Part shown: positions 3,014-28,098 of the stretch, in pieces
Numbering within the stretch: position 1 is the first letter of the stretch
Layout: every line of letters begins with the position of its first letter
Sequence record: NC_054912.1
Origin: Escherichia phage vB_EcoM_F1
Length of the DNA: 64,000 bases
Direction: 5' to 3' (one strand)
Made by a program: the position numbers and the translations under genes
Notes under the pieces: generated by a model
The model's input: only the letters and a program-made list of their open reading frames with translations
Database searches by the model: none
Told to the model about the DNA's origin: nothing

Positions 3014-4029
3014 TGTGTTGCCTCTACATATAGCTGATTTGCATATTGAATAAGTGCTTCACGGTCAGAATCAGTGATGTCTGGAATTGCATTAATATAC
3101 TCTTCCATCAACGTCTGAAGCGATTGAACTTCAACTTCTTCACTGTCATCTGACTCGACAGAGTTATCAATTTTTGACACAACTCGTAATGAATGCACAA
3201 CTTTTTCTAGTTCAGATTCGAACTTCGTTAGATTTTTGTCTACTTCAGTTACTATAACACGTACTGATAGATTTGTAAAATCTTTATAGTCAATTTTTCC
3301 TTTAAATGGATAATGAATTCTACGATGCCAGGTAGTATTGTTTGGAATAAATTCCATTCGTTCTGTTTCTGTATCAAACATCCAGAACCCACGAGGGTCA
3401 TTCTCGTCACCTGCAGTTAGTGTCCATGGTGTCCCAATATATCTGACGTTTGCAGCCTCAGAGATAGTATGGAAGTGACCAGACCACACTTCTTTATAAG
3501 TCTTAAGGAAATCAGGTTCAAGACCGTGAGATTTCATTCCTTTATAAAAATAAAATCCATTCAGTTCCCAGTGACCAACACAAAAAGAAGCAGATGAAGT
3601 TTTGATATGCTCAAGAATTTCACCAGTATTTTCTTCACACATCCAAGGAATTAAATCAATCAAACATCCGTCAAAATCTACTGTAGTAGGCTTATCATAT
3701 ACTTTAACATTAGGATATTTAGCCAAAAGCTCAGTAGAGGCATTTGGATGCATTACATTTTTATAGTGGAGATCGTGATTTCCTACAATAGTGTGTAATG
3801 TAATTCCAGCATCATCAAGCGTTTGAACTATTTCACGAGCGAACTCCATAGTTTTATGTGTGATTGCTTTTCGCACATCAAAAATATCACCGTATTGAAT
3901 CCAGGTAGTAATTCCATTTTTCTTAGAATATTCTATTGCTTGTTTAATTCCATCAATTTGAATACCGCGAATCCACTCATCATCGGCTTTAACGCCTAAA
4001 TGCCAATCACCTAAATTTAAAATTTTCAT
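3010..4029 (-). CDS. 47: recombination nuclease subunit gp47 (Mre11/SbcD-like phosphoesterase)
   Basis: 339 aa; calcineurin-like phosphoesterase motifs (LGDWHLG, GDIFD, GNHD). Confidence 0.95.
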   Translation of the reverse strand: MKILNLGDWHLGVKADDEWIRGIQIDGIKQAIEYSKKNGITTWIQYGDIFDVRKAITHKTMEFAREIVQTLDDAGITLHTIVGNHDLHYKNVMHPNASTELLAKYPNVKVYDKPTTVDFDGCLIDLIPWMCEENTGEILEHIKTSSASFCVGHWELNGFYFYKGMKSHGLEPDFLKTYKEVWSGHFHTISEAANVRYIGTPWTLTAGDENDPRGFWMFDTETERMEFIPNNTTWHRRIHYPFKGKIDYKDFTNLSVRVIVTEVDKNLTKFESELEKVVHSLRVVSKIDNSVESDDSEEVEVQSLQTLMEEYINAIPDITDSDREALIQYANQLYVEATQ

Positions 4030-4189
4030 ATATCAAGAACCGTCATTGAAATGCAAAATAAAATTATTGAAATAAATCCATCTGGAGTGCTAAAGAACCC
4101 AATCCAACATGCTCTAGTGAATAGATAAAATGCAAGAAAAAGTATCACATATCCAAGAAATATCATTATATCAAACTCCGTATAAAGCT

Positions 4190-4207
4190 AAAGGGCCGAA
4201 GCCCTTT
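4190..4207 (-). terminator. stem-loop with UUCG tetraloop after a-gt
   Basis: Plus aaagggc-cgaa-gcccttt; weak U tract downstream on minus strand. Confidence 0.45.
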
Positions 4208-5408
4208 ATTTTGTAATAATGTCAAACTGTTCTTTAAAGCAGAAGCTTGAATCTTGATGCTGATACAAAAATTCATATGCTTTTTCACGTTCACGGTCAT
4301 AAAGAGCTCGGTCAGATGACAGTTCTTTAATACGCTCGAATGTTGATTCCATGTCATTTTCATCAAACCAAATGATACCGCTATCATGTGAGGTCAAAGG
4401 AGTATTATCAACACGGAATTTTAAATTTTCGCCAGTAGATTTCCAGAAAACAGGAATTGTTCCACATGCACCAAGCTCGAGATGAGTATATTCGAGTGAG
4501 CGTTGTAAGTATTTCTGGTTAAGTTTACTCAACTGATATCCAAAGCCAGATTTACTCATTCGTTCAAGCATTTCACTATTAATATAACAATCTAGGATTT
4601 GTGCCGGTTGATTCGGCGCGAGATTCATTTTATCAATCTCACGATTACCGTAATATTCATACGGAATACCTTTTTCCTTAATTGCAATAAAAGCAGGGGA
4701 ACGTTCAAGACCTTCCATTACAGTGGATTTACCAGCAGGTTTTAAGAATTTTTCATGAAAATCAAACATCTGATAAAAACCTTTCCATGTAGTCGTACGA
4801 CCAATCCAACGGTTGATGTTCATGTTAATTTCAGAAACATCTTTCCAATAAGTTGACCGAACCTTCGCAATATCCATAGGAGGCTGAAAATTATATACTG
4901 TTGGTGCTTCTTCAATATCATCAAACAGAGAAACAGTTTCTGGATACCATTCTTTCATCAGAACTTTATTAAAATCGCCATTATCAGAATGACTAAAAAT
5001 AACATCAGCTCGACGAACAGTTTCTTCTAATCCCAAATTTCGACGCAAAGAAAGAACAGAATGATCATGCTGATAAACTACAACACGAATAGAAGGTTTA
5101 ATATTATCTAAAAGTTTTTTATAGTTATTAATCGTGGCTTCTTGAACGGAAGTAGCAGGAACAGAATTAATAATTAGAATATCACAATCATTTACCAGCT
5201 TAAGTGTTTTATCGTATTCTTTAGCTAAAATAACTGGAATTGAAAATGATTTGTGGTCATGAGAACTTGTACGAGTAAATGATTTATCTTTAGCATAAAC
5301 CAAAGTTACTTCATGACCATTTTTAATAAACCAATCACGCTGCTCAAGAGAAAATTTAGTTACACCGCAACCTTCAAGACCCCGAGCCAGAAAAATGCAT
5401 ACTTTCAT
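4206..5408 (-). CDS. a-gt: DNA alpha-glucosyltransferase
   Basis: 400 aa; near-identical to T4 alpha-glucosyltransferase as I recall it. Confidence 0.95.
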   Translation of the reverse strand: MKVCIFLARGLEGCGVTKFSLEQRDWFIKNGHEVTLVYAKDKSFTRTSSHDHKSFSIPVILAKEYDKTLKLVNDCDILIINSVPATSVQEATINNYKKLLDNIKPSIRVVVYQHDHSVLSLRRNLGLEETVRRADVIFSHSDNGDFNKVLMKEWYPETVSLFDDIEEAPTVYNFQPPMDIAKVRSTYWKDVSEINMNINRWIGRTTTWKGFYQMFDFHEKFLKPAGKSTVMEGLERSPAFIAIKEKGIPYEYYGNREIDKMNLAPNQPAQILDCYINSEMLERMSKSGFGYQLSKLNQKYLQRSLEYTHLELGACGTIPVFWKSTGENLKFRVDNTPLTSHDSGIIWFDENDMESTFERIKELSSDRALYDREREKAYEFLYQHQDSSFCFKEQFDIITK

Positions 5409-14625: not shown

Positions 14626-14804
14626 TTAGAAATAGACTTTTCGCCATTAGAATAATAAACTTCGAGTTTAGCACGATTATTTTTAATTTGAATAACCTTT
14701 GCTGTCATCAAAGTTCCATACCCATAATAAACTGCAACTTCATCACCTACATATACCGCGCTTCCGCGGTAATCGTGAATATAGTCAGTTCCTTCGATCA
14801 TCAT
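14589..14804 (-). CDS. hypothetical small protein
   Basis: 71-aa ORF. Confidence 0.45.
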   Translation of the reverse strand: MMIEGTDYIHDYRGSAVYVGDEVAVYYGYGTLMTAKVIQIKNNRAKLEVYYSNGEKSISKWKYGDCMVKLG

Positions 14805-15064
14805 TTAAAATATTCTCGCAGTTGGTCAAATCCACCAATATGACTTCCATCAGGAGCAAATACCTGGGGCATTGTCAAGCCAATTTGAGTATCACGACCT
14901 AGTTTAGTCAGAATCTCAGCGATTTTCTCATCATCAAAAACACCTTTTTCCGGCATAATGTTGATAAATTCAAACGGCTGTTTCTTCACGGTCAAAAGAC
15001 GTTTTGCATTATCGCAATACACACATTTATGAATGTTGCTATCATAACCATATACTTTAAACAT
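14801..15064 (-). CDS. nrdC: phage thioredoxin/glutaredoxin
   Basis: 87 aa with CVYC active-site motif. Confidence 0.9.
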   Translation of the reverse strand: MFKVYGYDSNIHKCVYCDNAKRLLTVKKQPFEFINIMPEKGVFDDEKIAEILTKLGRDTQIGLTMPQVFAPDGSHIGGFDQLREYFK

Positions 15065-15065
15065 A

Positions 15066-15308
15066 TTATTCCTTAATTCCTAGTACTTGTTTAAAAGTCT
15101 CGTCGTAATCAAGACTTTGGCCCGTTTGTTCTTTATGTTTGTATATAATATCACTTACTTCTGATAGCATATTTTTATATGAACGAGTTAAAGCAGATTT
15201 AAGCACGCTGTATCTATCAGGAAATTTACCATGTTCATTATAATAAGCTATTGCTAATTCACGGACTGCCTTTTCAGCAGCCTCCATATATTCTTTACGC
15301 TTGGTCAT
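15066..15308 (-). CDS. hypothetical protein (nrdC.1 position)
   Basis: About 80 aa from the internal Met MTKRKEY; the listed ORF extends to 15449. Confidence 0.45.
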
Positions 15309-15609
15309 TTTCTTCTCGGTCAAATCGGTGTTTACAATGGCGACATTTATAACGAAGATTACTAGTCTGCCAATGGACCAATTGCACCTGTTCAGTTCCA
15401 CATTCAGGGCAATTAGGAACGTTTTTAGAAGCCCTTTCACGACGTTCAACCATGACCATTACAGAATCCCAATTAATAGGAGGGCTATAATCATCACAAC
15501 CATGAATCTTTCCACGCATTTCCAAATCGTCTTCTTCACCAGCCATAATAATTTTAATTAGACTAGAATTACTTGAAGCTGCAATGTCTTCTAATAAACG
15601 CTTTTTCAT
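15295..15609 (-). CDS. zinc-ribbon small protein
   Basis: 104 aa with CPEC...CRHC. Confidence 0.5.
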
Positions 15610-16532
15610 TTCAATACCTCAATAGCATTACGTAAACCATTTGCTTTGGAGGTTAAAGCCTTAAGAACTTTAGTATGCTCTTCAATTTGTTTTTCAACTT
15701 CAGCCAAACGGGCATTGAGATATTCGCGTTCTTCTTTCATAGTATCATTCCCATGATTGGGTTTTGGTGCAGATTTAAATTCACTAGGGTCCTTTAACTT
15801 AATAACAAATTTAGTTTCAAACAGTGAAAGACCATAATTCGTATTATCATCAAAGGATTTAACTACATCCATATTAGATAATAACTCATGCAAATTATAA
15901 GACAAAGAACTAATAGTTTCATTGTGTTTATTAGCTTCGCGTGGTTTCATATACGGAAGATTTTTATATATCTCATGCGGAGCGCAAACGATAATTGACA
16001 ATTCAAATTGTCCATTCTGGGACGATGGAATGAATTTAGCCGTAACCCAGTCTTTTACATTCACATTAATAGTACGGTTATCACCATGACAAAACAGTCT
16101 ACGAGAATGCTTAAAAAGCATATTCACGTTATTATTGAATTCGTGTGAAAATTCACTAGCAAATTTTTCTTTACTATCTTTAGAAAACCATTCTTCTAAA
16201 TAAGTTCTTTTCACGTCGTTAATAATATTAAATGTAACAACACTAGCATTTGATACATTAGTCTCAATGTAGCTTGGATACATAAATTTTTTAACATTAT
16301 TAACAGCTATCACAGAAGATAGTAATCGGGAACGTTTGAACCACTCGAGCAAAGAACCAAGAGAATGTGAATACGCATTTTGTGTATCTTTACAAATATG
16401 GTTTTCCCATCCAATATAGTCTAAAAAATCACGAAGAATATTATTGATTACTGCTCTGTGTCCGATCTGATAATTACGGTGTTTAGTAATAAGACTGTCA
16501 AAATAATCAATATAATGTTTACGAGTTTTCAT
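15606..16532 (-). CDS. paralogue A of a four-gene family with C-terminal coiled coil
   Basis: 308 aa; shares (L/F)xxMDVVxS and the C-terminal heptad helix with the next three genes. Confidence 0.6.
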   Translation of the reverse strand: MKTRKHYIDYFDSLITKHRNYQIGHRAVINNILRDFLDYIGWENHICKDTQNAYSHSLGSLLEWFKRSRLLSSVIAVNNVKKFMYPSYIETNVSNASVVTFNIINDVKRTYLEEWFSKDSKEKFASEFSHEFNNNVNMLFKHSRRLFCHGDNRTINVNVKDWVTAKFIPSSQNGQFELSIIVCAPHEIYKNLPYMKPREANKHNETISSLSYNLHELLSNMDVVKSFDDNTNYGLSLFETKFVIKLKDPSEFKSAPKPNHGNDTMKEEREYLNARLAEVEKQIEEHTKVLKALTSKANGLRNAIEVLK

Positions 16533-16586
16533 GTTCTTCTCACTTGGTTAATGATTTATGCTCCGAGCCATCCTTGGCTTTAAATT

Positions 16587-17588
16587 TTACTTAATTAACT
16601 GTAAAGCTTGTTCAAGACGATCAAGGCGATTAACAGATTCTTCCCAAATCCTTTTAGCCTGCTCATATTCTTTGTGCGCTTTATTAGAAATTTCTAGAAC
16701 TTCTTTATAAGCTTTTTCTAATGCAATAACTTCTGGACGAATTTCTACCGGTTCAGGTGAATCATCAAGATTATCCATTAGTTCCTCAAGAGTAGTTTCT
16801 TCTTTAGGAGTATTCACAATTTCATCACATTTTTGTTGATAAATTTCTTTACTAGTAGGTGAATAAGTACATTTCACTTCACGAAGACTAACTACAATTT
16901 TATATCCTTCCCAACCACACAGATTTTTGAAAGGATATGTATGAATACTTTTTACAGTTTTCATACAGCCCAAAGCCGCCTCTAATTGATGAGTTGTGGT
17001 TCTAGCAATTGAGAAAAATTTATTAATATTCTTTTGGTTAGTTTCTGGTGTAAAAAATCTGTAATTAATAAAAATAGCTACTTTGTTTTTATCAAGCTCA
17101 TATTCTTCTGCTATAATCATATCATCAGCTAAGGGATGAATTTGACGATAATCGCCATAACATAATTTAGAAGCTGATTTTAGAATTTGCTTCGTAAAAC
17201 TCCTAAATTCACTAACCCAACGACGAGTAAAAATATTCTCAGGGTCTTCTTTATTATTAAGATGATAAGAATTAACATCACCGAACCAATTATATCCTAC
17301 TACATCTTTGGTTCGTTTAATTTCTTTCCCAAAATTACCAAGAATATCCCGATTAACCAAATATGAAAGAAGACGAGACTCTTTAAAAGTTTTCTTGATA
17401 ACATCTTTATCTACACGGCTAGAAATTTTACGAATTTCATGAATAAATTTAGTAGAAGAAACAATACTTGCATCAACACTATTGAGCCATTGATTGATAA
17501 TAGAAAGAACGATATTTTGACCAAACATCGGTATAGCTTTATCATCAATAACTCTATTGAATGATTTGATATATTCGTTACGAGTCAT
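16587..17588 (-). CDS. paralogue B of the four-gene family
   Basis: 333 aa from MTRNEY with a GAGGAG RBS; FRSFTKQILKSASKL motif shared with paralogue C. Confidence 0.6.
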   Translation of the reverse strand: MTRNEYIKSFNRVIDDKAIPMFGQNIVLSIINQWLNSVDASIVSSTKFIHEIRKISSRVDKDVIKKTFKESRLLSYLVNRDILGNFGKEIKRTKDVVGYNWFGDVNSYHLNNKEDPENIFTRRWVSEFRSFTKQILKSASKLCYGDYRQIHPLADDMIIAEEYELDKNKVAIFINYRFFTPETNQKNINKFFSIARTTTHQLEAALGCMKTVKSIHTYPFKNLCGWEGYKIVVSLREVKCTYSPTSKEIYQQKCDEIVNTPKEETTLEELMDNLDDSPEPVEIRPEVIALEKAYKEVLEISNKAHKEYEQAKRIWEESVNRLDRLEQALQLIK

Positions 17589-17613
17589 AATAATCTCCTC
17601 AGTAGAAAGTAAG

Positions 17614-17648
17614 AACATTATACCACATCCTTGTGGCAAAGTAAACTA
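17614..17648 (-). promoter_or_regulatory. T4-type early promoter
   Basis: Minus strand GTTTAC -35 and TGGTATAAT extended -10. Confidence 0.55.
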
Positions 17649-18671
17649 GTTCAGTGCATTTAGTGCATTGTTCAGTTTAGAACGTTGCTTTGTCAGATTT
17701 TGAACCCTTGACTGAGCTTGTTCTAACGCCTTTTCAGCTTCTAGCACTTCATTGGTCGCTTTAACGAGTTCATCATCTACTGCCTTAAGAGACTTCTCAA
17801 TCGCGTCAGCGTGCCATTTTTCTACAGGTTTAAAATTTGAATTTTCAGTAGGAAGAAAACTCACTTTATTAAGTTTACATGCATCTATATTGCTTGAGCT
17901 ATACATCCAAAATTTAGGATCGTTTGATAAGTAATTGGATAAATTTAAATTTAAGTTATCTTGTACTTCCTGCTTTTTCTCTTGCGTGACTTCGTCCTTT
18001 CTCAAAAAATCGTATTTAAATGAAACGATCATATCAAGTTCATACGTTGTTGTGTCTAACTTAAATCGTTCAAAACGAGGTAAAATCTTAGATTGAACAG
18101 CAGCAACAACATCCATATACTTAAATGCTTCTGTCAACTGTGATTTAAGGCATTCACAAATTGAAAGAGAATTTTTTGTATTAGGTTTAAAGCTAATTCG
18201 CGCAGTTCTATTATTTTCTTTTAATGGTCTTACTTCCATTTGAAGAGTATAACCATCAAATTTCAGATTCTTTAAGTTAATATCAGAACCTTTTAATCGA
18301 CTAGCAGTAGACAAAATTTGCTTTAATTGTCTACGGAACAGAGCAATAAATCTCCATTCAATACGATAATGATTTGGATTGAAAAATCCAGATGATAAAT
18401 CGACCTTACTCTGACCAACGCCTTGAACAAATAGAGGATTTTTATAATCAATAGTTTTACAGAAATCGGTGAGCTGTTCACGAGCAGTCATTTGTGTAAT
18501 ATATCCAGCTTTATCAAAATGACGTAACCATTCACTGCTATTCATATACTTAAAGTGAATATCACGATTAACTTTATCAGGGTCTAAATTATTTTGGCAC
18601 AAAAATGTCATAACATCACGAGTATAGCTGGCATTACGAACCATATCTTCAATTTGAGAACGAGTTTTCAT
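17646..18671 (-). CDS. paralogue C of the four-gene family
   Basis: 341 aa; FRRQLKQILSTASRL and MDVVAAV motifs; C-terminal coiled coil. Confidence 0.6.
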   Translation of the reverse strand: MKTRSQIEDMVRNASYTRDVMTFLCQNNLDPDKVNRDIHFKYMNSSEWLRHFDKAGYITQMTAREQLTDFCKTIDYKNPLFVQGVGQSKVDLSSGFFNPNHYRIEWRFIALFRRQLKQILSTASRLKGSDINLKNLKFDGYTLQMEVRPLKENNRTARISFKPNTKNSLSICECLKSQLTEAFKYMDVVAAVQSKILPRFERFKLDTTTYELDMIVSFKYDFLRKDEVTQEKKQEVQDNLNLNLSNYLSNDPKFWMYSSSNIDACKLNKVSFLPTENSNFKPVEKWHADAIEKSLKAVDDELVKATNEVLEAEKALEQAQSRVQNLTKQRSKLNNALNALN

Positions 18672-18679
18672 AGTGTTCC

Positions 18680-19567
18680 TTAAGATTTAAGTAAATCAAC
18701 AATTTTAATTAATTTTTCACGCTCAGATTTAGCTTTACTACTCAATCCAGATAGTCTGAAAATTTCATCGTCATACTGTTGAATAGAAATATTCAGCTCT
18801 TCAATTTGCTTATTAAAATAATCAATTTGTTCAGAATGTTTTTCGTTACTACGAACTGGTACAGGTTTTGTAGGTAATTTAGATGAACTGGATTCATCCG
18901 GGCGATAAATTAAAATACAACTTGAACCAATAGGGCATTTTGCACCAGATGAATATTCTAATGTTCCGGCTTCTTTTAAAACTTCAAAAGCTAAACAGAG
19001 ATGATGCCCCATATTAACATAATCAGTAGAGCGAGCTCTGATATAATAATCATCGCCGCGAATACTAAATTTAAAGCATTTAAGGTCTTCTGTATTATTG
19101 GTCTTAAAAATCATTTGTTTATCTAGACCTTTAGCTAATCGAGCGCCTAATGCTAATAATCGTCGTTGATTTTCCCACAAATCCGCAATCATTTGATCAA
19201 ATGATAATTTCGGCATTAGTCGACCATAAAGGTCGTATCCTTTATTATAATTGCGAAGGATTTCACTCGCATTAATACGAGACAATGCTCCAATTTTATT
19301 AAGGGCTTTCATGATGCGATTAGATAAACCCATTCCAGACCCATTTGTTCGTTGTAAATGTTTATCTAATCCAAACCCAATATCAACTTTAAATTTATCT
19401 AAAATTTCAGCATGAACATCTCTGTCAATAACATTCAAATCCAAAGTTGGGTTAAATCTATGAAAAAATTTATCTGGCTCTCCACGACGAAGTACAGTCC
19501 ATTCATTCAATTTTTTATTAACTAAAGATTTAATTACTGCATTGACATTATTAATTACGACTGACAT
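18680..19567 (-). CDS. paralogue D of the four-gene family
   Basis: About 295 aa from MSVV with a GAGGAA RBS; the listed ORF extends to 19588. Confidence 0.55.
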   Translation of the reverse strand: MSVVINNVNAVIKSLVNKKLNEWTVLRRGEPDKFFHRFNPTLDLNVIDRDVHAEILDKFKVDIGFGLDKHLQRTNGSGMGLSNRIMKALNKIGALSRINASEILRNYNKGYDLYGRLMPKLSFDQMIADLWENQRRLLALGARLAKGLDKQMIFKTNNTEDLKCFKFSIRGDDYYIRARSTDYVNMGHHLCLAFEVLKEAGTLEYSSGAKCPIGSSCILIYRPDESSSSKLPTKPVPVRSNEKHSEQIDYFNKQIEELNISIQQYDDEIFRLSGLSSKAKSEREKLIKIVDLLKS

Positions 19568-19574
19568 ATTTTCC

Positions 19575-19982
19575 TCACTCAATTTCAATTTTACTAAATA
19601 CGCAGAATATGATGGAAAAGACTATATAAGCACCACACACAGATTGAACTAATACCATTCCAAAGAACCAAACAATATTATCAAACAATGTCTGTTTTAC
19701 GTCGAAAGGACGTAAACTTACAGTAATATTATCGCCTTTTTCTATTGATGAATACATCTCTGGGGAAATATATTCGCTAAATCTATAACCGTCATTGAGT
19801 TCATATACAGCAATAAACGATAAACTAGATCCCTTTCCTTGAGTTCCTGTAAGGGTATTAACTACAGTAACATCATAATCTTTATAATGCATATAATCAT
19901 TAATTGCGTAATAACCATATGCAATTACTATACATAAACAACATATCAATAAATTCAATCTTTTAATTATCAACTGTTTCAT
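19575..19982 (-). CDS. membrane protein
   Basis: 135 aa with N- and C-terminal hydrophobic helices. Confidence 0.5.
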   Translation of the reverse strand: MKQLIIKRLNLLICCLCIVIAYGYYAINDYMHYKDYDVTVVNTLTGTQGKGSSLSFIAVYELNDGYRFSEYISPEMYSSIEKGDNITVSLRPFDVKQTLFDNIVWFFGMVLVQSVCGAYIVFSIIFCVFSKIEIE

Positions 19983-20037
19983 AATAATCTCAGTTAAAAG
20001 GGCTTAGAACCATTATACCATCCTTGGTATAAAGCGG

Positions 20038-20565
20038 TTATGCGAGTACCGTCTTTAACCGTTCTTCAAACTTCCGAAGAGTATTCTGGCGTTCAGCTCT
20101 TTGCTTTTTGTAAGTTTCAATACGCTCTGAAATGAGAGTGTATCGTTCATTTACTGATTCTTTCATAAAATCAGGAATTTCACGAGAAGATTTAATCTCG
20201 TCAAATTTATCAATAACAGCTTGCTCTTCAGCAATTAAGTTATCATACATCAAAATATCTTTCTTGATGAACTCAATATCTTCTTGAGTTACACGAGATA
20301 ATTTAGATGCTTTATCCTTTTTGTACTGTTCATTAGTATCACGAGACCAGTGTAATGTACGATTTTTATTCGTATTTTTGTAAATTTCTACAATACCGAT
20401 CTCATCAATAATAACGATCCAATTCCAACGAGATTTGTAAATTTGCCCTCCATCAACCGTGATTTCACCTCCGATTGAGATGTCATTAAAGAACTTGCTT
20501 TGTGCTTCAGATTTAAATTTACCATCATTGTAGTTTACCAAGTTGAAAATATCTTTAGCATTCAT
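20038..20565 (-). CDS. hypothetical protein with C-terminal coiled coil
   Basis: About 175 aa from MNAKDIF with a GGAGGA RBS; the listed ORF extends to 20625. Confidence 0.5.
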   Translation of the reverse strand: MNAKDIFNLVNYNDGKFKSEAQSKFFNDISIGGEITVDGGQIYKSRWNWIVIIDEIGIVEIYKNTNKNRTLHWSRDTNEQYKKDKASKLSRVTQEDIEFIKKDILMYDNLIAEEQAVIDKFDEIKSSREIPDFMKESVNERYTLISERIETYKKQRAERQNTLRKFEERLKTVLA

Positions 20566-20591
20566 TTTCTGTTCCTCCGTAGTTGATAGTT

Positions 20592-20624
20592 GTATAGTAC
20601 CACAGAGGAACGGTCTTGTAAACA
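20592..20624 (-). promoter_or_regulatory. T4-type early promoter
   Basis: Same module as other early promoters (ttgtatagtacca ... tgtaaacaa on plus). Confidence 0.5.
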
Positions 20625-20625
20625 A

Positions 20626-20940
20626 CTAAAAGAAACTTCTTTCACAATTTTTTCCACTGAACCACGCGCTCACTGCTTTCTTAGTCTCAGGAGCAGTGTT
20701 ATCCATAAACCATTCAAAGGCAGCCTTTTTATGATTCTGGAGAGCTTCTCGGGCTTTAATCTGCTCACGGTCTATTAACACTAACATATGAGCCTTTCTT
20801 GTCACCAAGGGCTTCTTATGATTCTTGGAGTATTCCCAGTCATTTGTCCAACGCATTGTCGTTGCGAACTGAAATACTGCTTCTTTAATTTTAGTTTCGT
20901 AAATTTCACGAGCCTTTGAGTATAACATCATTACCTCCAT
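20626..20940 (-). CDS. hypothetical protein
   Basis: 104-aa ORF. Confidence 0.5.
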   Translation of the reverse strand: MEVMMLYSKAREIYETKIKEAVFQFATTMRWTNDWEYSKNHKKPLVTRKAHMLVLIDREQIKAREALQNHKKAAFEWFMDNTAPETKKAVSAWFSGKNCERSFF

Positions 20941-21029
20941 TTACCAGTTTAATTCTAGTCATCTTTTTGATGGCAGTCCATATAATCTATTTCTGAACTG
21001 CCTTTTTGTCATAGAAGGCCTCTTATGAA

Positions 21030-21998
21030 TTATTTCAGAAGAGTAACCTCAGCAATTTCTTCCCAACCATTTTTGTCGGTCATAATAAAGTCAGCAAGAT
21101 AAAGAGCAGTACGCAGTGAAACATTGCGTAAACGATTAACATTGACTTTCATCCATGATAATGCTTTATAAGTTTCTTCATCAGAAAGACCGCGCTTTTG
21201 CATCATGTCAGTTGAAAGAATAACATCTTCAACCCTGACCATAATTTCTTCATTAGTGTGAACACCCAAATCCAAATAAACCGAGCGGGACACTAATGCT
21301 TGTAAATGTGGAGCAAGTTTAGTACCACGGTCTAATTCGCGGTCAATGTCAACGTTTGTGATAAAAACAATCGTTCCTTTAAATTCAAACTCACGCTCAA
21401 TGCCTTTTTCTTCTAAGTAAGAAGATGCAGTGCTCCAGCAGACTTTACGGGTCTCTCCAGTGTCCAGAGCAGCTTTCAGAAGATTAAGAATGTCCATATC
21501 AGAGAAAACATCCACATCATCAATCAAAAGGACAGAATTCTCTTCACGATTATTCCAAAGCTGTTCATAAAGACCGATACCAGAGATTTTACCATTAATG
21601 CTTTTATACTCAATGTATCCAATGTCATTTGCTTTATTTAAAGCTTTATCTAAAGAATACGTTTTACCAATACCCGCCGCACCAGAGATAATTAATGAAC
21701 GAATGTTTCCGTTAATAATACCATTCGTCATCATTCCCATAACATTAAATCTTTTATTAATGCGGGTTTTCATATCTTCATATGATTCTTTAACTTCTTC
21801 AACTTTTACACCATCATATGAAATGTCTGATTTGTAAACCCAAACACCGCGACGCTTACCGTCAATTTCAACAAAAACTTTACCATCTCCTTGTGCATCT
21901 ACCGGAGCATTATCTGGGAACCATTCACCTAAGAGCTCAAAAGTTCCAGAGATTTCTTTACCGAAGTAGATACCCTTATTGATAGTTACAGTTTTCAT
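21030..21998 (-). CDS. AAA+/P-loop ATPase
   Basis: Walker A GAAGIGKTY, Walker B LLIDDVD; start taken at MKTVTINKG with a GGAG RBS. Confidence 0.7.
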   Translation of the reverse strand: MKTVTINKGIYFGKEISGTFELLGEWFPDNAPVDAQGDGKVFVEIDGKRRGVWVYKSDISYDGVKVEEVKESYEDMKTRINKRFNVMGMMTNGIINGNIRSLIISGAAGIGKTYSLDKALNKANDIGYIEYKSINGKISGIGLYEQLWNNREENSVLLIDDVDVFSDMDILNLLKAALDTGETRKVCWSTASSYLEEKGIEREFEFKGTIVFITNVDIDRELDRGTKLAPHLQALVSRSVYLDLGVHTNEEIMVRVEDVILSTDMMQKRGLSDEETYKALSWMKVNVNRLRNVSLRTALYLADFIMTDKNGWEEIAEVTLLK

Positions 21999-22030
21999 TT
22001 TATTCTCCAATCTCACATTTGTTTTGATAG

Positions 22031-22067
22031 GGTAATAGTATCACACTACTACCCTTCTGTAAACAAT
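22031..22067 (-). promoter_or_regulatory. T4-type early promoter
   Basis: ggtaatagtatcac ... tgtaaacaa module. Confidence 0.5.
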
Positions 22068-22331
22068 TTATTTTAACGTTCGCCAAATTTTTACTGCTTC
22101 ACGGCGAGATACTTCTACAGCTCCAAGTTCTACAGCTTTTTGGCGTCGCCGAGCGTGTAAGTCATAATGTTTAATGCGTTTATCTTGAAACCAAGAACGT
22201 TTCATTCCTATTGCTTCTGCCATTTCGTGAAGCTCTTCAATATCTCCATCAGTGAACATATGACAATTTTTAGTTGGATGACCGCGAAGTTTCCATCCAT
22301 GATTCATTAAAACATCTACGTAAACTGTCAT
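22068..22331 (-). CDS. DUF4031-like small protein
   Basis: 87 aa; MTVYVDV...CHMFTD...HYDL pattern as I recall for DUF4031; family assignment from memory. Confidence 0.5.
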   Translation of the reverse strand: MTVYVDVLMNHGWKLRGHPTKNCHMFTDGDIEELHEMAEAIGMKRSWFQDKRIKHYDLHARRRQKAVELGAVEVSRREAVKIWRTLK

Positions 22332-22477
22332 TGATTCTTCTCCAAATAAGTTTCGATAATTTTCTGGGCGAGATAAACCGCGTTATCTTCAGTTGCGTCT
22401 TCTAAGAAACTTTCAAAACACTCTGAAATTTCTTCTGTATCAATCAACTTTTTTACTTCAATTGGTGTAATTTTCAT
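22328..22477 (-). CDS. small ORF (49 aa) translationally coupled to the DUF4031-like gene
   Basis: Not in track; ATGA stop/start overlap with the downstream gene. Confidence 0.35.
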   Translation of the reverse strand: MKITPIEVKKLIDTEEISECFESFLEDATEDNAVYLAQKIIETYLEKNQ

Positions 22478-22565: not shown

Positions 22566-22591
22566 ATAAAAAAGGGAGCCCGAAGGCTCCC
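22566..22591 (-). terminator. rho-independent terminator
   Basis: Minus GGGAGCC-UUCG-GGCUCCC followed by U6. Confidence 0.7.
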
Positions 22592-22593
22592 TA

Positions 22594-23607
22594 TCATTTA
22601 TAATAACTTCGGTGGTTTTCAAGATAGACCTTCTCAAGGAAGTCATCCCAGAAACCCATGTCTACTTTTTGCTGCATACCGTTCTTAGAAGCTTCAGTAG
22701 ATGCTGCTTCTACTTGATCGACCACATCTTCCAAAAACTCTTGAACTGTTTTAAATGGATGCTTACCCAACTTCACGTCGAGAATAAATGGAGCATCTTG
22801 GAGTGGATAAACCAAGTCACCAGTTTTGTAAATTTCCAATAGTTGGAGTCCACCACGGCAAGCATGACTCAGAGCTTTCCAGTCAATACCTTCATTGGCT
22901 TCGGCCTTACGAGCGCGTTCACCATATTCAGCATCTAATTTGTTCAGTGACTGCTTAAGCTCAATAAGAGAAAGAGTTGTCTGATATTTACGACCCAACA
23001 CTGTGTAAAACGTCTGTGGGCCTGTTTTCTCATGATTATGGAACACCCATTCACAGAATTCGTTTTCTGGAAGACGATGCTTAATATCTTCAACTTTAGT
23101 ACGACGCTGCTTAATGGAACCGTCTTCTTGGTAATCAACCCATTGCTCAGGGATTTGATTAACTACTTTCAATACATCGCGTAATGCAGCCAAACGAGAA
23201 CCCTTAACGCCGTATTTAGAAGCTTGCTTACGGACATATCCTAAATATGATTTCATGTTAGTCGTATAAAAACGAGAACGGTTGTCTTGAATAAACTTCC
23301 ATACATCAGGCAAATCAGATTTAACCACTAGTTCAGGCGGAGTGTGAAGCATATCCAATGCTACAGTTTCACCATCTGCCGCTAATTTAAAGAAATACTT
23401 AAGACTGTATAGTTCATGGTCAATATCATCTTTAGTGTTTTTAGATGATGTGTTGTTAGTGTTTTTGCTCATATGCTCTTTAACATTTCCGATAAGAATA
23501 TCGCGAGCAGGAGGAACAAAAATTTCTTTAAAATCTACATCAGATTCTGGAGTAGAAGTTCCATAAAGATGACTACCAAAATAGCTTTTCATTACTGTTT
23601 TCATCAT
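22594..23607 (-). CDS. nucleotidyltransferase-fold protein (Pol-beta-like GS...DxD motif)
   Basis: 337 aa; N-terminal GSHLYGTSTPESDVD with a candidate third Asp about 60 aa downstream. Confidence 0.6.
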   Translation of the reverse strand: MMKTVMKSYFGSHLYGTSTPESDVDFKEIFVPPARDILIGNVKEHMSKNTNNTSSKNTKDDIDHELYSLKYFFKLAADGETVALDMLHTPPELVVKSDLPDVWKFIQDNRSRFYTTNMKSYLGYVRKQASKYGVKGSRLAALRDVLKVVNQIPEQWVDYQEDGSIKQRRTKVEDIKHRLPENEFCEWVFHNHEKTGPQTFYTVLGRKYQTTLSLIELKQSLNKLDAEYGERARKAEANEGIDWKALSHACRGGLQLLEIYKTGDLVYPLQDAPFILDVKLGKHPFKTVQEFLEDVVDQVEAASTEASKNGMQQKVDMGFWDDFLEKVYLENHRSYYK

Positions 23608-24065
23608 TCAGCCTTATATTCAATAACAGGACATACTTTAGCTTTACGAGCTTTTAAAAATTCAACGATAATCGATTTCTTGGGTTGAATAGGAGGTAAA
23701 CCTTTATTTTTCCTATCAATGTTTTCTACGTGTAAAGCATAATCCTTTTTCCATTTATAATCTTTATATTTTTCACGCAAATGTACAGGAATAACAAATG
23801 AACCAATAATAAGTAAAACAAGCAAAATGGCAAGTATAAATGCTGATGGAAGCAAAGTCCATAAACTACCGAAAATAAGCCATCGTTGTAAGCTTTCTGC
23901 ACAAATAATTGTTAGCCCTACGAGTATAGCACACCCAAAAATAGAAACGAAAAATGTAGGGATAACAATAGACCAAAAATATGCGCATAGTGTCTTAGGT
24001 CGTTGCCATTCATCGTTAAACAATTTGAATAATTTATAGTGCCAAGAGTTTTCATTAATAATCAT
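23604..24065 (-). CDS. membrane protein
   Basis: 153 aa with 2-3 predicted TM helices. Confidence 0.5.
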   Translation of the reverse strand: MIINENSWHYKLFKLFNDEWQRPKTLCAYFWSIVIPTFFVSIFGCAILVGLTIICAESLQRWLIFGSLWTLLPSAFILAILLVLLIIGSFVIPVHLREKYKDYKWKKDYALHVENIDRKNKGLPPIQPKKSIIVEFLKARKAKVCPVIEYKAE

Positions 24066-24067
24066 AA

Positions 24068-24589
24068 CTATCCTTTCATTGAAGGCGTAACAGTTGTTAA
24101 ATACTTAATCATAGCTTCAGCTTCTGATTTTGATAGTGAAATTTCTCCATTGTTTTGACGAATAGAAATAAAATCCGGATGACGGTCACCACCAGCTTTT
24201 AAAACACACATATAAGTATCAGTTTCATCTTCAATATCTGAAATGATTGAAGCAGTTCCACATGAATGTGGTTTTTGATAAATCAATACAGCTTTTCTTC
24301 CACCGTTTGACTGTTCATAAACTTTTAACACATCAAACAAATCGCTTCTTTTATCAATAGCTAAGATGTTGTTTTCATCTTCAATATTAAATCCTTCGGA
24401 TACTTCATAAAGTGTCACCCATAAATCACCAATATCAATAACAGCGTTCACTTTTCCATGACTTTCAAGAGCATTACAAATTTTCTTAATTTCATCATAA
24501 CTCATTTTAATAATATCATCTCCTTGAATAAGGAAGATGTCATTTTTAAATTCAACACGAATTAAACCACTTCCACTTGAAATAAACAT
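24068..24589 (-). CDS. hypothetical protein, paralogue of the next gene
   Basis: 173 aa; C-terminal ...SEAEAMIKYLTTVTPSMKG resembles the neighbour. Confidence 0.5.
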   Translation of the reverse strand: MFISSGSGLIRVEFKNDIFLIQGDDIIKMSYDEIKKICNALESHGKVNAVIDIGDLWVTLYEVSEGFNIEDENNILAIDKRSDLFDVLKVYEQSNGGRKAVLIYQKPHSCGTASIISDIEDETDTYMCVLKAGGDRHPDFISIRQNNGEISLSKSEAEAMIKYLTTVTPSMKG

Positions 24590-24595
24590 ATTTCC

Positions 24596-25150
24596 TCACT
24601 TTGAAATCATAGTTGGAATGACAGAATCGAGATAAGTCTTTAGCGCAATAGCTTCGTCTTTGGTAAATGTGACAATATACGATCGAAAATCATCAATTTG
24701 ACGAATAGTTAAGACATCACCATCTTCATAGCATTTTGATACGTTTAAAACAGTTTCATCATTCTGATTGCAAGCGTTAGTAATAATAGCATTGCAATTT
24801 TTGAGCCATTTTAAACTATGTTTTCTTTCATTAGAATAATAAAAATATTTAATCTTATCTATAAAACTATCCCAATGGATAACTGATAAACACATTGACT
24901 CACTTTTAATATTAAATCCTGGGCATGAAGAATAAAAATGAATTTTGTGCTCATCATTGATGCTTACTATTTTATCAGTATAAGGATATTCAATTTGGGT
25001 TAAATGAATGATTTCACTAGGCGTAAAATATAGCATATCGTCTTCTTGTGTCAAACGATACATATTATTTACTTTTTCTATAGCTAATTCACCAAAAAGC
25101 GGACTAACTTCTAATACTAATCGTTTCATATTAATCCTTTTTATTGGCAC
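24596..25150 (-). CDS. hypothetical protein, paralogue of the previous gene
   Basis: 184 aa; C-terminal ...DEAIALKTYLDSVIPTMISK. Confidence 0.5.
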   Translation of the reverse strand: MPIKRINMKRLVLEVSPLFGELAIEKVNNMYRLTQEDDMLYFTPSEIIHLTQIEYPYTDKIVSINDEHKIHFYSSCPGFNIKSESMCLSVIHWDSFIDKIKYFYYSNERKHSLKWLKNCNAIITNACNQNDETVLNVSKCYEDGDVLTIRQIDDFRSYIVTFTKDEAIALKTYLDSVIPTMISK

Positions 25151-25409
25151 GAATTTGTTCTAAAATTTTAGAATATTCCTTTGTATCAGATTTACGTACA
25201 ATTGATACACTATAAGGCATACTATCGGTGTCTTTTATAAAGCGTTCCAAATGACACTCTAACAAAATTTCTGGATTATAAATCGTGTACATCAAATTAC
25301 CTGTTGCTCCACGATATTGGCAGATTTCTACTGATTGAACACCATTCCATAATTTTGTTAAAACTAAATCACCTACTTCTAATTTAGGAAAGCCCATGTT
25401 ATTCACCAA
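25131..25409 (-). CDS. hypothetical small protein
   Basis: 92-aa ORF. Confidence 0.45.
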   Translation of the reverse strand: MVNNMGFPKLEVGDLVLTKLWNGVQSVEICQYRGATGNLMYTIYNPEILLECHLERFIKDTDSMPYSVSIVRKSDTKEYSKILEQIRANKKD

Positions 25410-25584
25410 TTAAAGTTTCAATATAAGAATCAAGATTTACTTTAGCTTCTTCCATAAGAGTTTTGTATTTAATCTTGTTAGCATGTCCGGAGAAAGCTGA
25501 TTCATCAATAACTGTTGCTGTATGAACAGCTTTGCTATATGTTTCAATTAATTCTTTTAATTTAAAAGCCTGCTCACTTGTCAT
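25399..25584 (-). CDS. small helical protein, member of tandem paralogue set
   Basis: 61 aa, MTSEQAFKLKELIETY... Confidence 0.45.
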   Translation of the reverse strand: MTSEQAFKLKELIETYSKAVHTATVIDESAFSGHANKIKYKTLMEEAKVNLDSYIETLIGE

Positions 25585-25748
25585 TACATACTCCTTTGAA
25601 TAATATCAATAATGTTGTTCACCAGATTATAAGTAAACATTGGGTAATTATATTGAATCATCACATACACAACAAACAAAACTTTCATTCTCTTCTCCTT
25701 GGCAGTTGACAAGATTACTATACCATAACCTTGCCAACTTGTAAACCA

Positions 25749-25922
25749 TTAAATGACGTTTTCAATAAAATTCTGAAGCTTTGTATGAGCATCAACCATG
25801 ATTTTCAATTCTTCTTTAGCGAAAGCTGTACCTCTTTCACGAGAAGAACATTCATAGTCAGAAACTGCATTAGCATATTCTTCAATTAGCTTCATTAAAA
25901 ACATCTGCTTTTCAGTTTTCAT
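25749..25922 (-). CDS. small helical protein, member of tandem paralogue set (unlisted)
   Basis: 57 aa MKTEKQMFLMKLIEEYANAV...; found by manual translation. Confidence 0.4.
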   Translation of the reverse strand: MKTEKQMFLMKLIEEYANAVSDYECSSRERGTAFAKEELKIMVDAHTKLQNFIENVI

Positions 25923-26106
25923 TATTCCACCTAATCATTTCAAGATATTGAACTAACTTAGCTTTGGATTTATCCAAATCCTTTTTAGCTGCTTCTATAC
26001 CGTCGTATGAATATCCTTCACAATGCTCAACTGCTAATTGGTATGAATCTATTTCAATATCACGTGCTAATTTAATGATTTTTTCAAACTGTTCACGTGT
26101 TAGCAT
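25912..26106 (-). CDS. small helical protein, member of tandem paralogue set
   Basis: 64 aa, MLTREQFEKIIKLARD... Confidence 0.45.
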   Translation of the reverse strand: MLTREQFEKIIKLARDIEIDSYQLAVEHCEGYSYDGIEAAKKDLDKSKAKLVQYLEMIRWNNEN

Positions 26107-26108
26107 AC

Positions 26109-26300
26109 TTACACTCTCGTATTATGATCGATAATTTCATCAAGAAACATATCTAACGCTTCTACAGCATTATTAAATTTAGCTTCAAATTCTTCAATAC
26201 CTGATAAACCTGATAAGGCAAAGTTAATGCGTTCCTCATCTGCTTTACGAATTGAAGCCACTAATTCCTTGATTTTATCCGCTTGCTCTACACTAATCAT
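26109..26300 (-). CDS. small helical protein, member of tandem paralogue set
   Basis: About 63 aa from [16 protein letters not shown]; the listed ORF extends to 26336. Confidence 0.45.
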   Translation of the reverse strand: MISVEQADKIKELVASIRKADEERINFALSGLSGIEEFEAKFNNAVEALDMFLDEIIDHNTRV

Positions 26301-26533
26301 TATTCCACCACATATGAAAGAGAGAATATTGCACACGCCATGTGAGTTGCAACTTCATCACACATATCATAACGTTTCTTAAGAAGTTCTACAAGTTCTT
26401 CACTAGTGACTTCATCCATGTCGACGAAAAAATCACCATTAATGATGACATAGATATTTCCTTCTTGATTAAGTGCTTCAATTTTCATGATGTTCTCCTC
26501 TTTATCCGATGGTTGTATAGTATCACAGCTCAA
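26300..26533 (-). CDS. hypothetical small protein
   Basis: 77-aa ORF. Confidence 0.45.
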
Positions 26534-26583: not shown

Positions 26584-26859
26584 TTATTCGAGGGAAAGAA
26601 GATACTTACTCTGGTAAAACATTCCAGTAATATCATCTATCGTGCTTTGGATGGCTGGAGGCATTTCTTTATAAATGCTGTTAGATTGGTCTAGTATGCG
26701 ATCAATCATTTTAATTGTGTCGGTAGGAAGTTTACTAGCATCTGGAATTGAAGGTGTGTATTTTCTACCAGAATACCCCAAATATTGCTCACCAAATTTA
26801 TCAATCAAATCTGGCAACTCGGAGAAAATAAAATCGTCTAGCATAACTTTTAGTTTCAA
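26584..26859 (-). CDS. hypothetical protein (rI.-1 position)
   Basis: 91-aa ORF just downstream of rI. Confidence 0.5.
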
Positions 26860-26955
26860 AATGCGCAGAATGAAAATAAGCTTGTGCAGCCATTAATAAA
26901 CCTAAGTATTCATCTGCCTTTGAAGGTTTTCCACTTTGTGAAAAGTCGCTGAATT

Positions 26956-27249
26956 TCATTCAGTCTCCAATTTAATGTTCATAATTCTAGCGTATGATTG
27001 TGCCATCTCCGCGCCTCGCTCTATACATTCAAAATCGGAAGAGCACGGGTCATTTTTATAAGTCGTTCGCATAAAACTATAGAACTGTTCAGATGATTCT
27101 ACGCTTTTATTTTCAAAAAGCATATAAACGTGTCTAATACCAGATTCCATAAATTTATCAAAATGAGGATCGACATTCGCTTCAATTGGTGGAGATAAAG
27201 CAAACGCTAATCCTAGCATGGCAAATAGTGCCGTTGCTTTTAAGGCCAT
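26956..27249 (-). CDS. rI: lysis-inhibition regulator rI
   Basis: 97 aa with N-terminal signal-anchor; matches T4 RI. Confidence 0.9.
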   Translation of the reverse strand: MALKATALFAMLGLAFALSPPIEANVDPHFDKFMESGIRHVYMLFENKSVESSEQFYSFMRTTYKNDPCSSDFECIERGAEMAQSYARIMNIKLETE

Positions 27250-27261
27250 AAAGGCCTCCTA

Positions 27262-27474
27262 TCATTTTTGTCCTGTATTTACTTTATGCCGATGCACGGC
27301 CTTAACTTTATCAAGGTATTTTTCAAAATTTCGCAATCTAGTATAGTCTGCCGGAGATTGGTTGAGTGATACTTCTCGACGCAAAGCTGAAATGATATTT
27401 CCAACTTCCCTACGAATTTCATCTAATTGAAGAACAGTAAGATTGCAAAGTTGCTTTTCAGTTAATTGTAGCAT
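27262..27474 (-). CDS. hypothetical protein (rI.1 position)
   Basis: 70-aa ORF. Confidence 0.5.
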
Positions 27475-27516: not shown

Positions 27517-28098
27517 CTAACCGAGCTTTTTAGTTAATTCGTTCCAATGTTTTCTACACAAAGAAACATAAATTTCATCACCAATACAGATTTGATTACC
27601 TTCTTTAACTGGTGTTCCATCTTCCATTAATCGAGCTGTCATAATAGCTTTTTTACCACAATGACAAACTGCCTTTAGTTCAATAAGTTTATCTGCAATC
27701 GCCAAAAGTTCTTTAGAACCTTCAAATAATTTTCCAGCGAAATCAGTCCTTAATCCATAAGCCATAACAGGAACATTATATGTATCAACAATTCGGCTTA
27801 ATTGATGCACTTGTTCAGTTTTTAAAAACTGAGCTTCATCTACAAATACGCAATGAATATCTTTTTGTGCTTCAGCCCATTTATAGAACTCGAAAATATC
27901 CATATCATCTGTAATAATATTCGCTTCCTGCTTAATTCCAATGCGAGAAACGACTTCACAGACAGAATCGCGAGTATCAATAGCGGGTTTAAGAACTAAT
28001 ACACTCATTCCACGTTCTTTATAATTATGTGCGGCAGTCAAAAGAGAAGCAGATTTTCCAGCATTCATTGCTGCATAAGTAAAAATTAAACTCGCCAT
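27517..28098 (-). CDS. tk: thymidine kinase
   Basis: 193 aa; P-loop AMNAGKS and C-terminal zinc-binding Cys pairs. Confidence 0.95.
   Translation of the reverse strand: MASLIFTYAAMNAGKSASLLTAAHNYKERGMSVLVLKPAIDTRDSVCEVVSRIGIKQEANIITDDMDIFEFYKWAEAQKDIHCVFVDEAQFLKTEQVHQLSRIVDTYNVPVMAYGLRTDFAGKLFEGSKELLAIADKLIELKAVCHCGKKAIMTARLMEDGTPVKEGNQICIGDEIYVSLCRKHWNELTKKLG

Follow-up and report, generated by a model that had tools for sequence, protein, structure and literature searches.

A mobD.1 paralog and a PHROG 944 membrane-protein gene of Escherichia phage vB_EcoM_F1 lie in the slot that mobD occupies in T4

Introduction

Directly upstream of nrdC.11, a 64,000-nucleotide (nt) stretch of DNA from Escherichia phage vB_EcoM_F1 (sequence record NC_054912.1; hereafter the window) carries three open reading frames (ORFs) of 153, 173 and 184 amino acids (aa), at a place where phage T4 has the HNH homing-endonuclease gene mobD. 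An initial annotation, made from the sequence alone, had read these ORFs as a membrane protein followed by two paralogous proteins and had suggested that they might be a lineage-specific replacement. The locus thus raises the question of what the three genes are and which of the two arrangements is the derived one. We find that the direction of the replacement has to be reversed: the arrangement in the window is the common and ancestral one, one of its three genes is T4's own mobD.1, and T4 has lost the other two to a mobD cassette. The explanation that we favor as a whole is that two mobD.1-family paralogs stand beside a membrane-protein gene, that T4 underwent this loss, and that the lost genes are a non-essential membrane-associated accessory pair. 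We consider it slightly better supported than not, with a probability of roughly 0.55.

Results

Comparison with T4

The genes in question, and the block in which T4 and the window differ, are the following.

24596-25150, minus strand: maximal 184-aa ORF (GTG at 25150); as a 177-aa gene, 24596-25129 (ATG at 25129); ortholog of T4 mobD.1
24068-24589, minus strand: 173-aa ORF; tandem full-length mobD.1 paralog; RB32ORF097c in RB32/RB14
23604-24065, minus strand: 153-aa ORF; predicted two-pass inner-membrane protein; PHROG 944, RB69ORF104c family
22594-23607, minus strand: nrdC.11; RlaP-family nucleotidyltransferase; final gene ahead of the terminator
23609-24570 (962 bp), minus strand: block replaced in T4, with blastn breaks at 23608/23609 and 24570/24571

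All three ORFs exist as initially annotated, and T4 does have mobD in this neighborhood, exactly between nrdC.11 and mobD.1; a published review gives the same insertion site and leaves the target and activity of the enzyme undetermined (PMC2988022). By blastn, the T4 counterpart of the 962-bp block is an 808-bp block containing mobD. The block in the window consists of the membrane gene and of the 173-aa gene minus its first ~19-20 nt. At the upstream junction, T4 still has the Shine-Dalgarno sequence of the 173-aa gene and its first ~19-20 nt (ATGTTTATTTCAAGTGGAA) before it diverges; at the other end of the block, T4 and the window become homologous again at the start of nrdC.11. The mobD cassette therefore sits in the same slot between nrdC.11 and mobD.1 as the window block, but its sequence is unrelated to the window genes and it is the replacing element rather than the replaced one. 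As the initial annotation had noticed, there is no HNH gene at the window locus: neither blastp nor blastn found a match to T4 mobD, and no HNH Pfam family matched among the ORFs scanned. A six-frame profile search of the complete T4 genome found no PHROG 944 member and only one y05I member.

The distribution of the two arrangements is strongly skewed. The 173-aa gene is present at 90% identity or more in 432 phage records; the membrane gene is found in 932 records from several Straboviridae genera, its carriers including Tequatrovirus, RB69 (Mosigvirus), JS10, PG7, Klebsiella phages KPV15 and Mineola, Yersinia phage TG1 and Aeromonas phages. The mobD block is found in 47 records, all at least 99% identical, so that the window arrangement (about 430 records) outnumbers it by ~9 to 1. 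In RB69 the order is mobD.1, ORF104c (the membrane protein), nrdC.11. This distribution, the RB69 order and the piece of the 173-aa gene that T4 still carries make T4 the derived state. The ancestral order is y05I gene, membrane gene, nrdC.11, with a tandem y05I duplication in the window's lineage, and in T4 the mobD cassette has displaced both the second paralog and the membrane gene. Copies of mobD are nearly identical, as they should be if the gene is a recent invader.

A lineage-specific replacement of mobD in vB_EcoM_F1 would fit the absence of mobD from the window and the position of the two blocks in exactly the same slot, but it would leave a 173-aa gene remnant in T4 to be explained, together with copies of mobD that look recently acquired and an arrangement that prevails ~9 to 1 and is found in other genera as well. 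Moreover, T4 itself carries one of the three genes, mobD.1. We therefore regard this proposal as highly improbable. The comparison of synteny with T4 that had been recommended as a check does identify the shared slot, but it also places T4's own mobD.1 among the three genes; of the three, the 184/177-aa gene is thus present in T4 at this position, whereas the 173-aa and 153-aa genes are absent.

The mobD.1 gene itself (window 24596-25129 against T4 L001:9284-9829) has a synonymous divergence (dS) of 0.39, which is 2-4 times that of its neighbors (0.10-0.22 between T4 and the window for nrdC.11, nrdC.10, rI and tk). Allele replacement, a mosaic or co-conversion beside the mobD insertion may account for this elevated value. 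We also considered whether the 173-aa gene and the membrane gene are a duplicate of T4 nrdC.8 and nrdC.7, which encode a 175-aa protein and a membrane protein, and rejected this idea, as nrdC.8 and nrdC.7 match neither family.

Gene boundaries and transcription unit

Over a 2-kb stretch around the three ORFs, the window shares 100% identity with Escherichia phage vB_EcoM_FN (Tequatrovirus effone), and several hundred further Tequatrovirus genomes match it at 96-99%. Every gene here lies on the minus strand, and transcription runs from the 177/184-aa gene through the 173-aa gene and the 153-aa membrane gene to nrdC.11 and the terminator; the membrane protein is thus followed by the two other ORFs in plus-strand coordinates, but its gene is transcribed last of the three. 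Every gene has its own Shine-Dalgarno sequence, and the spacers are 2-6 nt or the genes overlap: the junction between the two paralogs reads TGA-GGAAAT-ATG, that between the 173-aa gene and the membrane gene TAG-TT-ATG, and the membrane-gene stop overlaps the nrdC.11 start (ATGA). A strong hairpin terminator reading on the minus strand (22573-22592) lies directly after nrdC.11; its 8-bp GC-rich stem, AGGGAGCC-TTCG-GGCTCCCT, and the T-run that follows mark the end of the transcription unit. Scans inside the block for sigma-70 and late/MotA consensus promoters gave nothing above shuffled expectation.

The 184-aa version of the first gene is the maximal GTG-started ORF and overlaps the gene upstream. 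The ATG at 25129 is preceded by an AAGGA Shine-Dalgarno sequence (AAGGA-N6-ATG), is where the GenBank record of the identical phage begins the coding sequence, and yields a protein whose N-terminus lines up with that of T4 MobD.1. For these reasons the mobD.1 ortholog more likely starts at this ATG, and encodes 177 aa, than at the GTG at 25150, and the length of 184 aa given initially applies to the maximal ORF but probably not to the gene. Compared with homologs that are ~92-99% identical, the 173-aa and 153-aa genes have ratios of nonsynonymous to synonymous substitution rates (dN/dS) of 0.08-0.19 (0.14-0.19 for the membrane gene), indicating purifying selection and, therefore, that both are genuine protein-coding genes. 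The corresponding ratio for the mobD.1 ortholog against T4 is 0.18.

Downstream, NrdC.11 is 98.5% identical to T4 NrdC.11 and matches Pfam RlaP (E 2.5e-11); the T4 protein has been described as an RlaP-family nucleotidyltransferase of unknown role (bioRxiv 10.64898/2025.12.29.696909). The region belongs to the tk-nrdC accessory block of Tequatrovirus, which is dispensable. A viable genome-reduced T4 has lost the segment from nrdC.11 to mobD.3 (PMC9825161), and T4 naturally lacks the 173-aa and 153-aa genes. Ever since the sequencing of the RB-phage genomes, annotations have listed the genes as hypothetical proteins (PMC1524935).

Two proteins of the MobD.1/Y05I family

The 173-aa and 184-aa proteins share 27% identity over 176 columns (BLASTP E 2e-9). 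The paralogy proposed initially is thereby upheld, but the similarity runs over the full length rather than over a C-terminal region only, and Pfam assigns the same two domains to both. Against T4_y05I_N (PF24449) and T4_y05I_C (PF24448), whose gathering thresholds are 24.9 and 27 bits, the 173-aa protein scores 119.6 bits (E 1e-34) and 82.7 bits (E 2e-23), the 184-aa protein 133.9 bits (E 3.5e-39) and 73.9 bits (E 1.4e-20), and T4 MobD.1 146.7 and 73.7 bits. Both window proteins also belong to PHROG 1502 (184-aa protein against phrog_1502, E 7e-81). The two are full-length paralogs, with a similarity well beyond chance.

Because the 184/177-aa protein is 86% identical to T4 MobD.1 (UniProt Y05I_BPT4; 89.6% at the nucleotide level) and its flanks are collinear, its gene is the ortholog of T4 mobD.1. 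The 173-aa protein shares both domains with T4 MobD.1 across its whole length but is only 25-27% identical as a paralog (24.6% in direct comparison with T4 MobD.1); it is not the MobD.1 ortholog, and it has no T4 counterpart. The best-conserved element of the family is a C-terminal helix (...EAxAxxxYLxxVxPxM). Proteins of the family are acidic, with isoelectric points (pI) of 4.5-5.8 for whole proteins; the 173-aa protein has a pI of 4.7 and its N-domain one of 4.3. The words 'putative transcription factor' in the Pfam naming of the family are a fold-based label. NCBIfam gave zero matches for the three window proteins, and no functional study was found in the literature on mobD.1/y05I, the PHROG and Pfam families and the RB ORFs.

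Four T4-like metagenomic contigs (L003, positions 4001-4540, and L004-L006) carry a single 179-aa chimeric y05I gene, in which residues 1 to ~125 are of the mobD.1 type and the last ~55 are near-identical to the 173-aa paralog; tandem y05I paralogs have therefore recombined, with the implied loss of the DNA between the crossover points. Phage T2 (L084) has broken copies of these genes, and in its record the membrane gene and the y05I fragment are labeled 'prohead core protein' and 'prohead core scaffold protein'. Other name errors in public records are nrdC.x genes given as 'thioredoxin' and a mobD.x gene given as 'molybdopterin-guanine dinucleotide biosynthesis protein MobD'.

A large family of small membrane proteins

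The membrane-protein call of the initial annotation is borne out: the 153-aa protein has two long hydrophobic stretches, roughly residues 25-60 and 62-98, and its C-terminal tail is basic (pI 9.75). AlphaFold2 (AF2) places helices at 26-64 and 68-120. These features are consistent with an N-in/C-in hairpin whose basic tail would be cytoplasmic. The protein matches phrog_944 (E 2.9e-51) and is of the same length class as RB69ORF104c, with which it shares N- and C-terminal motifs and the place upstream of nrdC.11. It belongs to no Pfam, NCBIfam or PADLOC family: PADLOC models gave zero matches for any of the three window proteins, and Pfam returned nothing for it but DUF2207_C, which at 14.9 bits is below the cut-off of 33, and no Imm, Sp, SieB or holin.

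In a whole-library profile search, PHROG 944 relatives amounted to 2183 clusters (at 50% identity) with E<=1e-3, 268 of them with E<=1e-10, and nearly all were 100-240 aa long. All 31 distant relatives sampled matched phrog_944, and Pfam gave only one-off noise on them (SieB, holin, Oleosin and others, in one member each). The motifs of the 153-aa protein are SWHY and LCxYFW near the N-terminus and KAxKxKxCPxxE near the C-terminus. SWH, LCxYFW and KxCP occur together in 110 of 137 representatives, with KxCP 5-9 residues from the C-terminus, and H9, L26, C27, Y29, C145 and P146 are invariant across distant members. This conserved His/Cys/Cys set at the two putatively cytoplasmic ends suggests a metal or redox site. 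PHROG annotates the family as moron / host takeover, and many of its members are in unrelated phages beside other neighbors. A scan of bacterial genomes, made with narrow patterns only, found a single contig of a metagenome-assembled genome and says little.

In a more distant T4-like metagenomic phage (L008:3507-4390), rI is next to a tandem of two PHROG 944 paralogs, of 165 and 129 aa, after which come a 94-aa ORF and RlaP; a y05I gene was not detected there. We considered the 165-aa ORF of this phage as a divergent y05I protein and rejected this assignment, the ORF being the second PHROG 944 paralog.

Predicted fold of the Y05I family

We modeled the 173-aa protein with AF2, using an alignment of 27 sequences from three subfamilies. 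The model has a mean predicted local distance difference test (pLDDT) score of 72.6, with 82-93 in the N-domain (residues 1-95) and only 44-70 in the C-domain, which contains five strands and one helix. With good confidence, the N-domain is predicted to consist of two beta-beta-beta-beta-alpha repeats that superpose on a Pur-alpha type I PC4-like domain, and the hallmark of the PC4-like/PUR/Whirly fold, such repeats packed two to a domain, is present in this model. The C-domain resembles a third such repeat, with the conserved helix at its end. Structures of the Pur-alpha / PC4-like (Whirly) fold used for comparison were PDB 3k44, 5fgo, 3n8b, 1l3a and 2gia, and the fold matches scored as follows.

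Drosophila Pur-alpha 3k44: 10.4 (97 residues, 2.6 A)
SsgA-like 3cm1: 8.2
MRP2: 8.0
Whirly p24: 7.0
StWhy2: 6.5
Pur-alpha repeat III, Borrelia Pur-alpha and PC4/Sub1: about 5-6

According to a review of the PC4-like fold, Pur-alpha is the only reported protein with both intramolecular (type I) and intermolecular (type II) domains (PMC7549692). The three-repeat layout of Y05I, if the model is right, would mimic this arrangement. Sequence comparisons did not reveal the same relationship. Identity between the phage family and Pur-alpha/PC4-like (Whirly) proteins is at most 12%, and unlike them the phage family is acidic; a Pfam scan at E<=0.1 found no PUR, Whirly or PC4 family in Y05I proteins; and a sequence-profile search of the PDB gave no real match, only CsoS1D at E 0.53. 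Internal repeats were detected weakly by hhalign, only between repeats 1 and 3 (E 8.5e-4, probability 24%). In Foldseek searches, the only credible PDB entry was SsgA-like 3cm1 (probability 0.77), and BFVD returned only family members and uncharacterized phage proteins.

The acidity of Y05I proteins, judged by bulk pI, argues against conventional nucleic-acid binding, though not decisively. SsgA is a protein-binding Whirly-fold protein, and acidity might be more in keeping with a protein of this kind. The SsgA-like proteins of actinomycetes (3cm1) nevertheless have no sequence similarity to Y05I, comprise a single domain without the third repeat, and serve an unrelated biology, sporulation septation.

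Gene neighborhood across phages

The survey covered 72 IMG/VR loci with a gene for a relative of the membrane protein, 31 of them T4-like. In the T4-like loci the RlaP/nrdC.11 gene lies downstream of the membrane gene, directly or within ~1.3 kb, and in 26-27 of the 31 the ORF that ends at the start of the membrane gene is y05I-like, either as a full-length gene or as a stand-alone C-domain of 68-87 aa ending ...EAEALVKYLNSVIPTMKG. Comparison of these neighborhoods with those of phages that are not T4-like shows that the pair of y05I C-domain and membrane gene is conserved within Tevenvirinae and not beyond. Functional coupling of the two proteins is plausible.

Other genes of the tk-nrdC block

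Gene order in the rest of the block was set by comparing each minus-strand ORF with the tk-nrdC block of T4 by BLASTP.

27517-28098, minus strand: tk
27262-27474, minus strand: rI.1
26956-27249, minus strand: rI
26584-26959, minus strand: rI.-1, two ORFs in the window
25584-26533, minus strand: mobD.5 to mobD.2
25131-25584, minus strand: two genes without T4 counterpart, Phage_tudor and DUF7438
22068-22477, minus strand: two further genes without T4 counterpart, between nrdC.11 and nrdC.10
14801-22016, minus strand: nrdC.10 onward to nrdC
25399-25584, minus strand: DUF7438 mini-gene
25749-25922, minus strand: DUF7438 mini-gene, mobD.2a
25912-26106, minus strand: DUF7438 mini-gene, mobD.3
26109-26300, minus strand: DUF7438 mini-gene, mobD.4

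Two indels relative to T4 correspond to the genes without counterpart: Phage_tudor (PF24144) and DUF7438 genes between mobD.2 and mobD.1 (25128-25572, minus strand), and a DUF4031 gene with a 49-aa ORF between nrdC.11 and nrdC.10 (22011-22470, minus strand), all absent from T4. The DUF7438 (PF24219) mini-genes, of ~60 aa each, stand in tandem at 25399-26300 on the minus strand; one of them, mobD.2a, encodes 57 aa in the window and 38 aa in T4, where the copy looks truncated. The rI.-1 gene is a single 128-aa gene (DUF5856) in T4, whereas the window has a 52-aa ORF (26801-26959, T4 residues 1-41) and a 91-aa ORF (26584-26859, T4 residues 46-128), both on the minus strand. The window copy looks frameshifted or pseudogenised; it is annotated as two coding sequences in the identical GenBank phage too.

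Discussion

The fold, the charge, the conserved adjacency and the dispensability of these genes lead us to a functional guess that we hold with low confidence: Y05I proteins may be acidic, PUR-like dimeric adaptors that cooperate with a small inner-membrane protein in some non-essential interaction with the host. Under this hypothesis the soluble proteins would dimerize through the third repeat, as Pur-alpha does, and would act as protein-binding or nucleic-acid-mimicking adaptors rather than as classical DNA binders. The paralog encoded beside the membrane gene would act at the cytoplasmic face of the inner membrane together with the two-pass protein, whose basic tail and juxtamembrane His/Cys/Cys motifs might form a docking or metal-binding site. 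The charges of the soluble proteins (pI 4.3-5.8) and of the membrane tail (pI 9.75) are complementary. The pair would then be a non-essential accessory for host takeover or related to defense, and not a core replication function.

Several observations weigh against the favored explanation. Foldseek found 0 PDB matches at E<=0.001 for the 173-aa model, and the C-domain, which would supply the third repeat, is poorly modeled (pLDDT 44-70). The AF2 model of the 153-aa protein (pLDDT 61, predicted template modeling score 0.27) is too low in confidence for a fold search, and the proposed metal site is drawn from conservation alone. In phages that are not T4-like, on contigs of ~93 kb, 230 kb and >350 kb, the ORFs that precede the membrane gene are unrelated and there is no RlaP, with one exception in which RlaP is near a PHROG 944 gene but upstream of it. 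Because PHROG 944 occurs in many such phages with unrelated upstream genes, the adjacency in T4-like phages could be inherited synteny alone. Finally, T4 itself keeps mobD.1 without any PHROG 944 partner.

Much of this evidence speaks for the strongest alternative, namely that the membrane protein acts alone, in superinfection exclusion, modulation of the envelope or of lysis timing, or defense evasion, and that the adjacency is inherited gene order. The breadth of PHROG 944 (2183 clusters, reaching phages of 93 kb, 230 kb and >350 kb where neither y05I nor RlaP is a neighbor) would be expected in that case, T4 retains both mobD.1 and nrdC.11 without the membrane gene, the gene shares its block with the lysis-inhibition gene rI, and the PHROG category is moron / host takeover. 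On the other hand, the upstream y05I C-domain gene persists in T4-like phages even where the membrane protein has diverged to ~30% identity, the pairing survives the shrinkage of y05I to its C-domain, and the window protein matches none of the Imm, Sp, SieB, holin or PADLOC models. We judge a solitary membrane protein to have a real chance of being correct, at somewhat more than one in three. Should the partner instead be the downstream RlaP-type NrdC.11, the overlapping stop and start (ATGA) would offer translational coupling, and RlaP is downstream in every T4-like locus examined; but 0.5-1.3 kb of other genes separate the two in many of these loci, T4 carries nrdC.11 without the membrane gene, and RlaP is missing near PHROG 944 genes in most other phages, bar the one upstream case. 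We consider this partnership unlikely.

Two further readings concern the soluble proteins. They might be single-stranded DNA- or RNA-binding regulators in the style of Pur-alpha, Whirly or PC4, independent of the membrane protein; the predicted fold would suit such a role but the acidity of the family speaks against it, and we hold about one chance in four for it. Somewhat more doubtful still is an extension of the favored explanation in which the y05I C-domain and PHROG 944 form a conserved two-component module, the acidic dimeric PUR-like adaptor docking on a membrane protein with a metal- or redox-sensitive His/Cys/Cys site. If this were true, PHROG 944, which comprises at least 2183 clusters at 50% identity and for which we found neither a Pfam model nor a publication, would be a large unrecognized class of phage-encoded membrane effectors for host takeover or defense evasion.

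The three genes are ordinary accessory genes whose families are already catalogued in Pfam and PHROG. They are dispensable in the laboratory and have been hypothetical proteins for ~20 years, and the current view of T4-like phages is not altered by them. Mildly novel are only the size of PHROG 944 with its His/Cys/Cys signature and the Pur-alpha-like three-repeat layout predicted in an acidic phage protein. These results draw attention to two under-studied families, the acidic phage family with this layout and a very large family of small membrane proteins without a Pfam model. They also indicate that the T4 reference genome is an exception, as it lacks two genes carried by most of its relatives, overwritten by a homing-endonuclease cassette. 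T4 is thus a natural knock-out for probing the role of the 173-aa and 153-aa genes, and the mobD-less alleles of the junction between nrdC.11 and the 173-aa gene are a concrete place in which to seek the target site of MobD.

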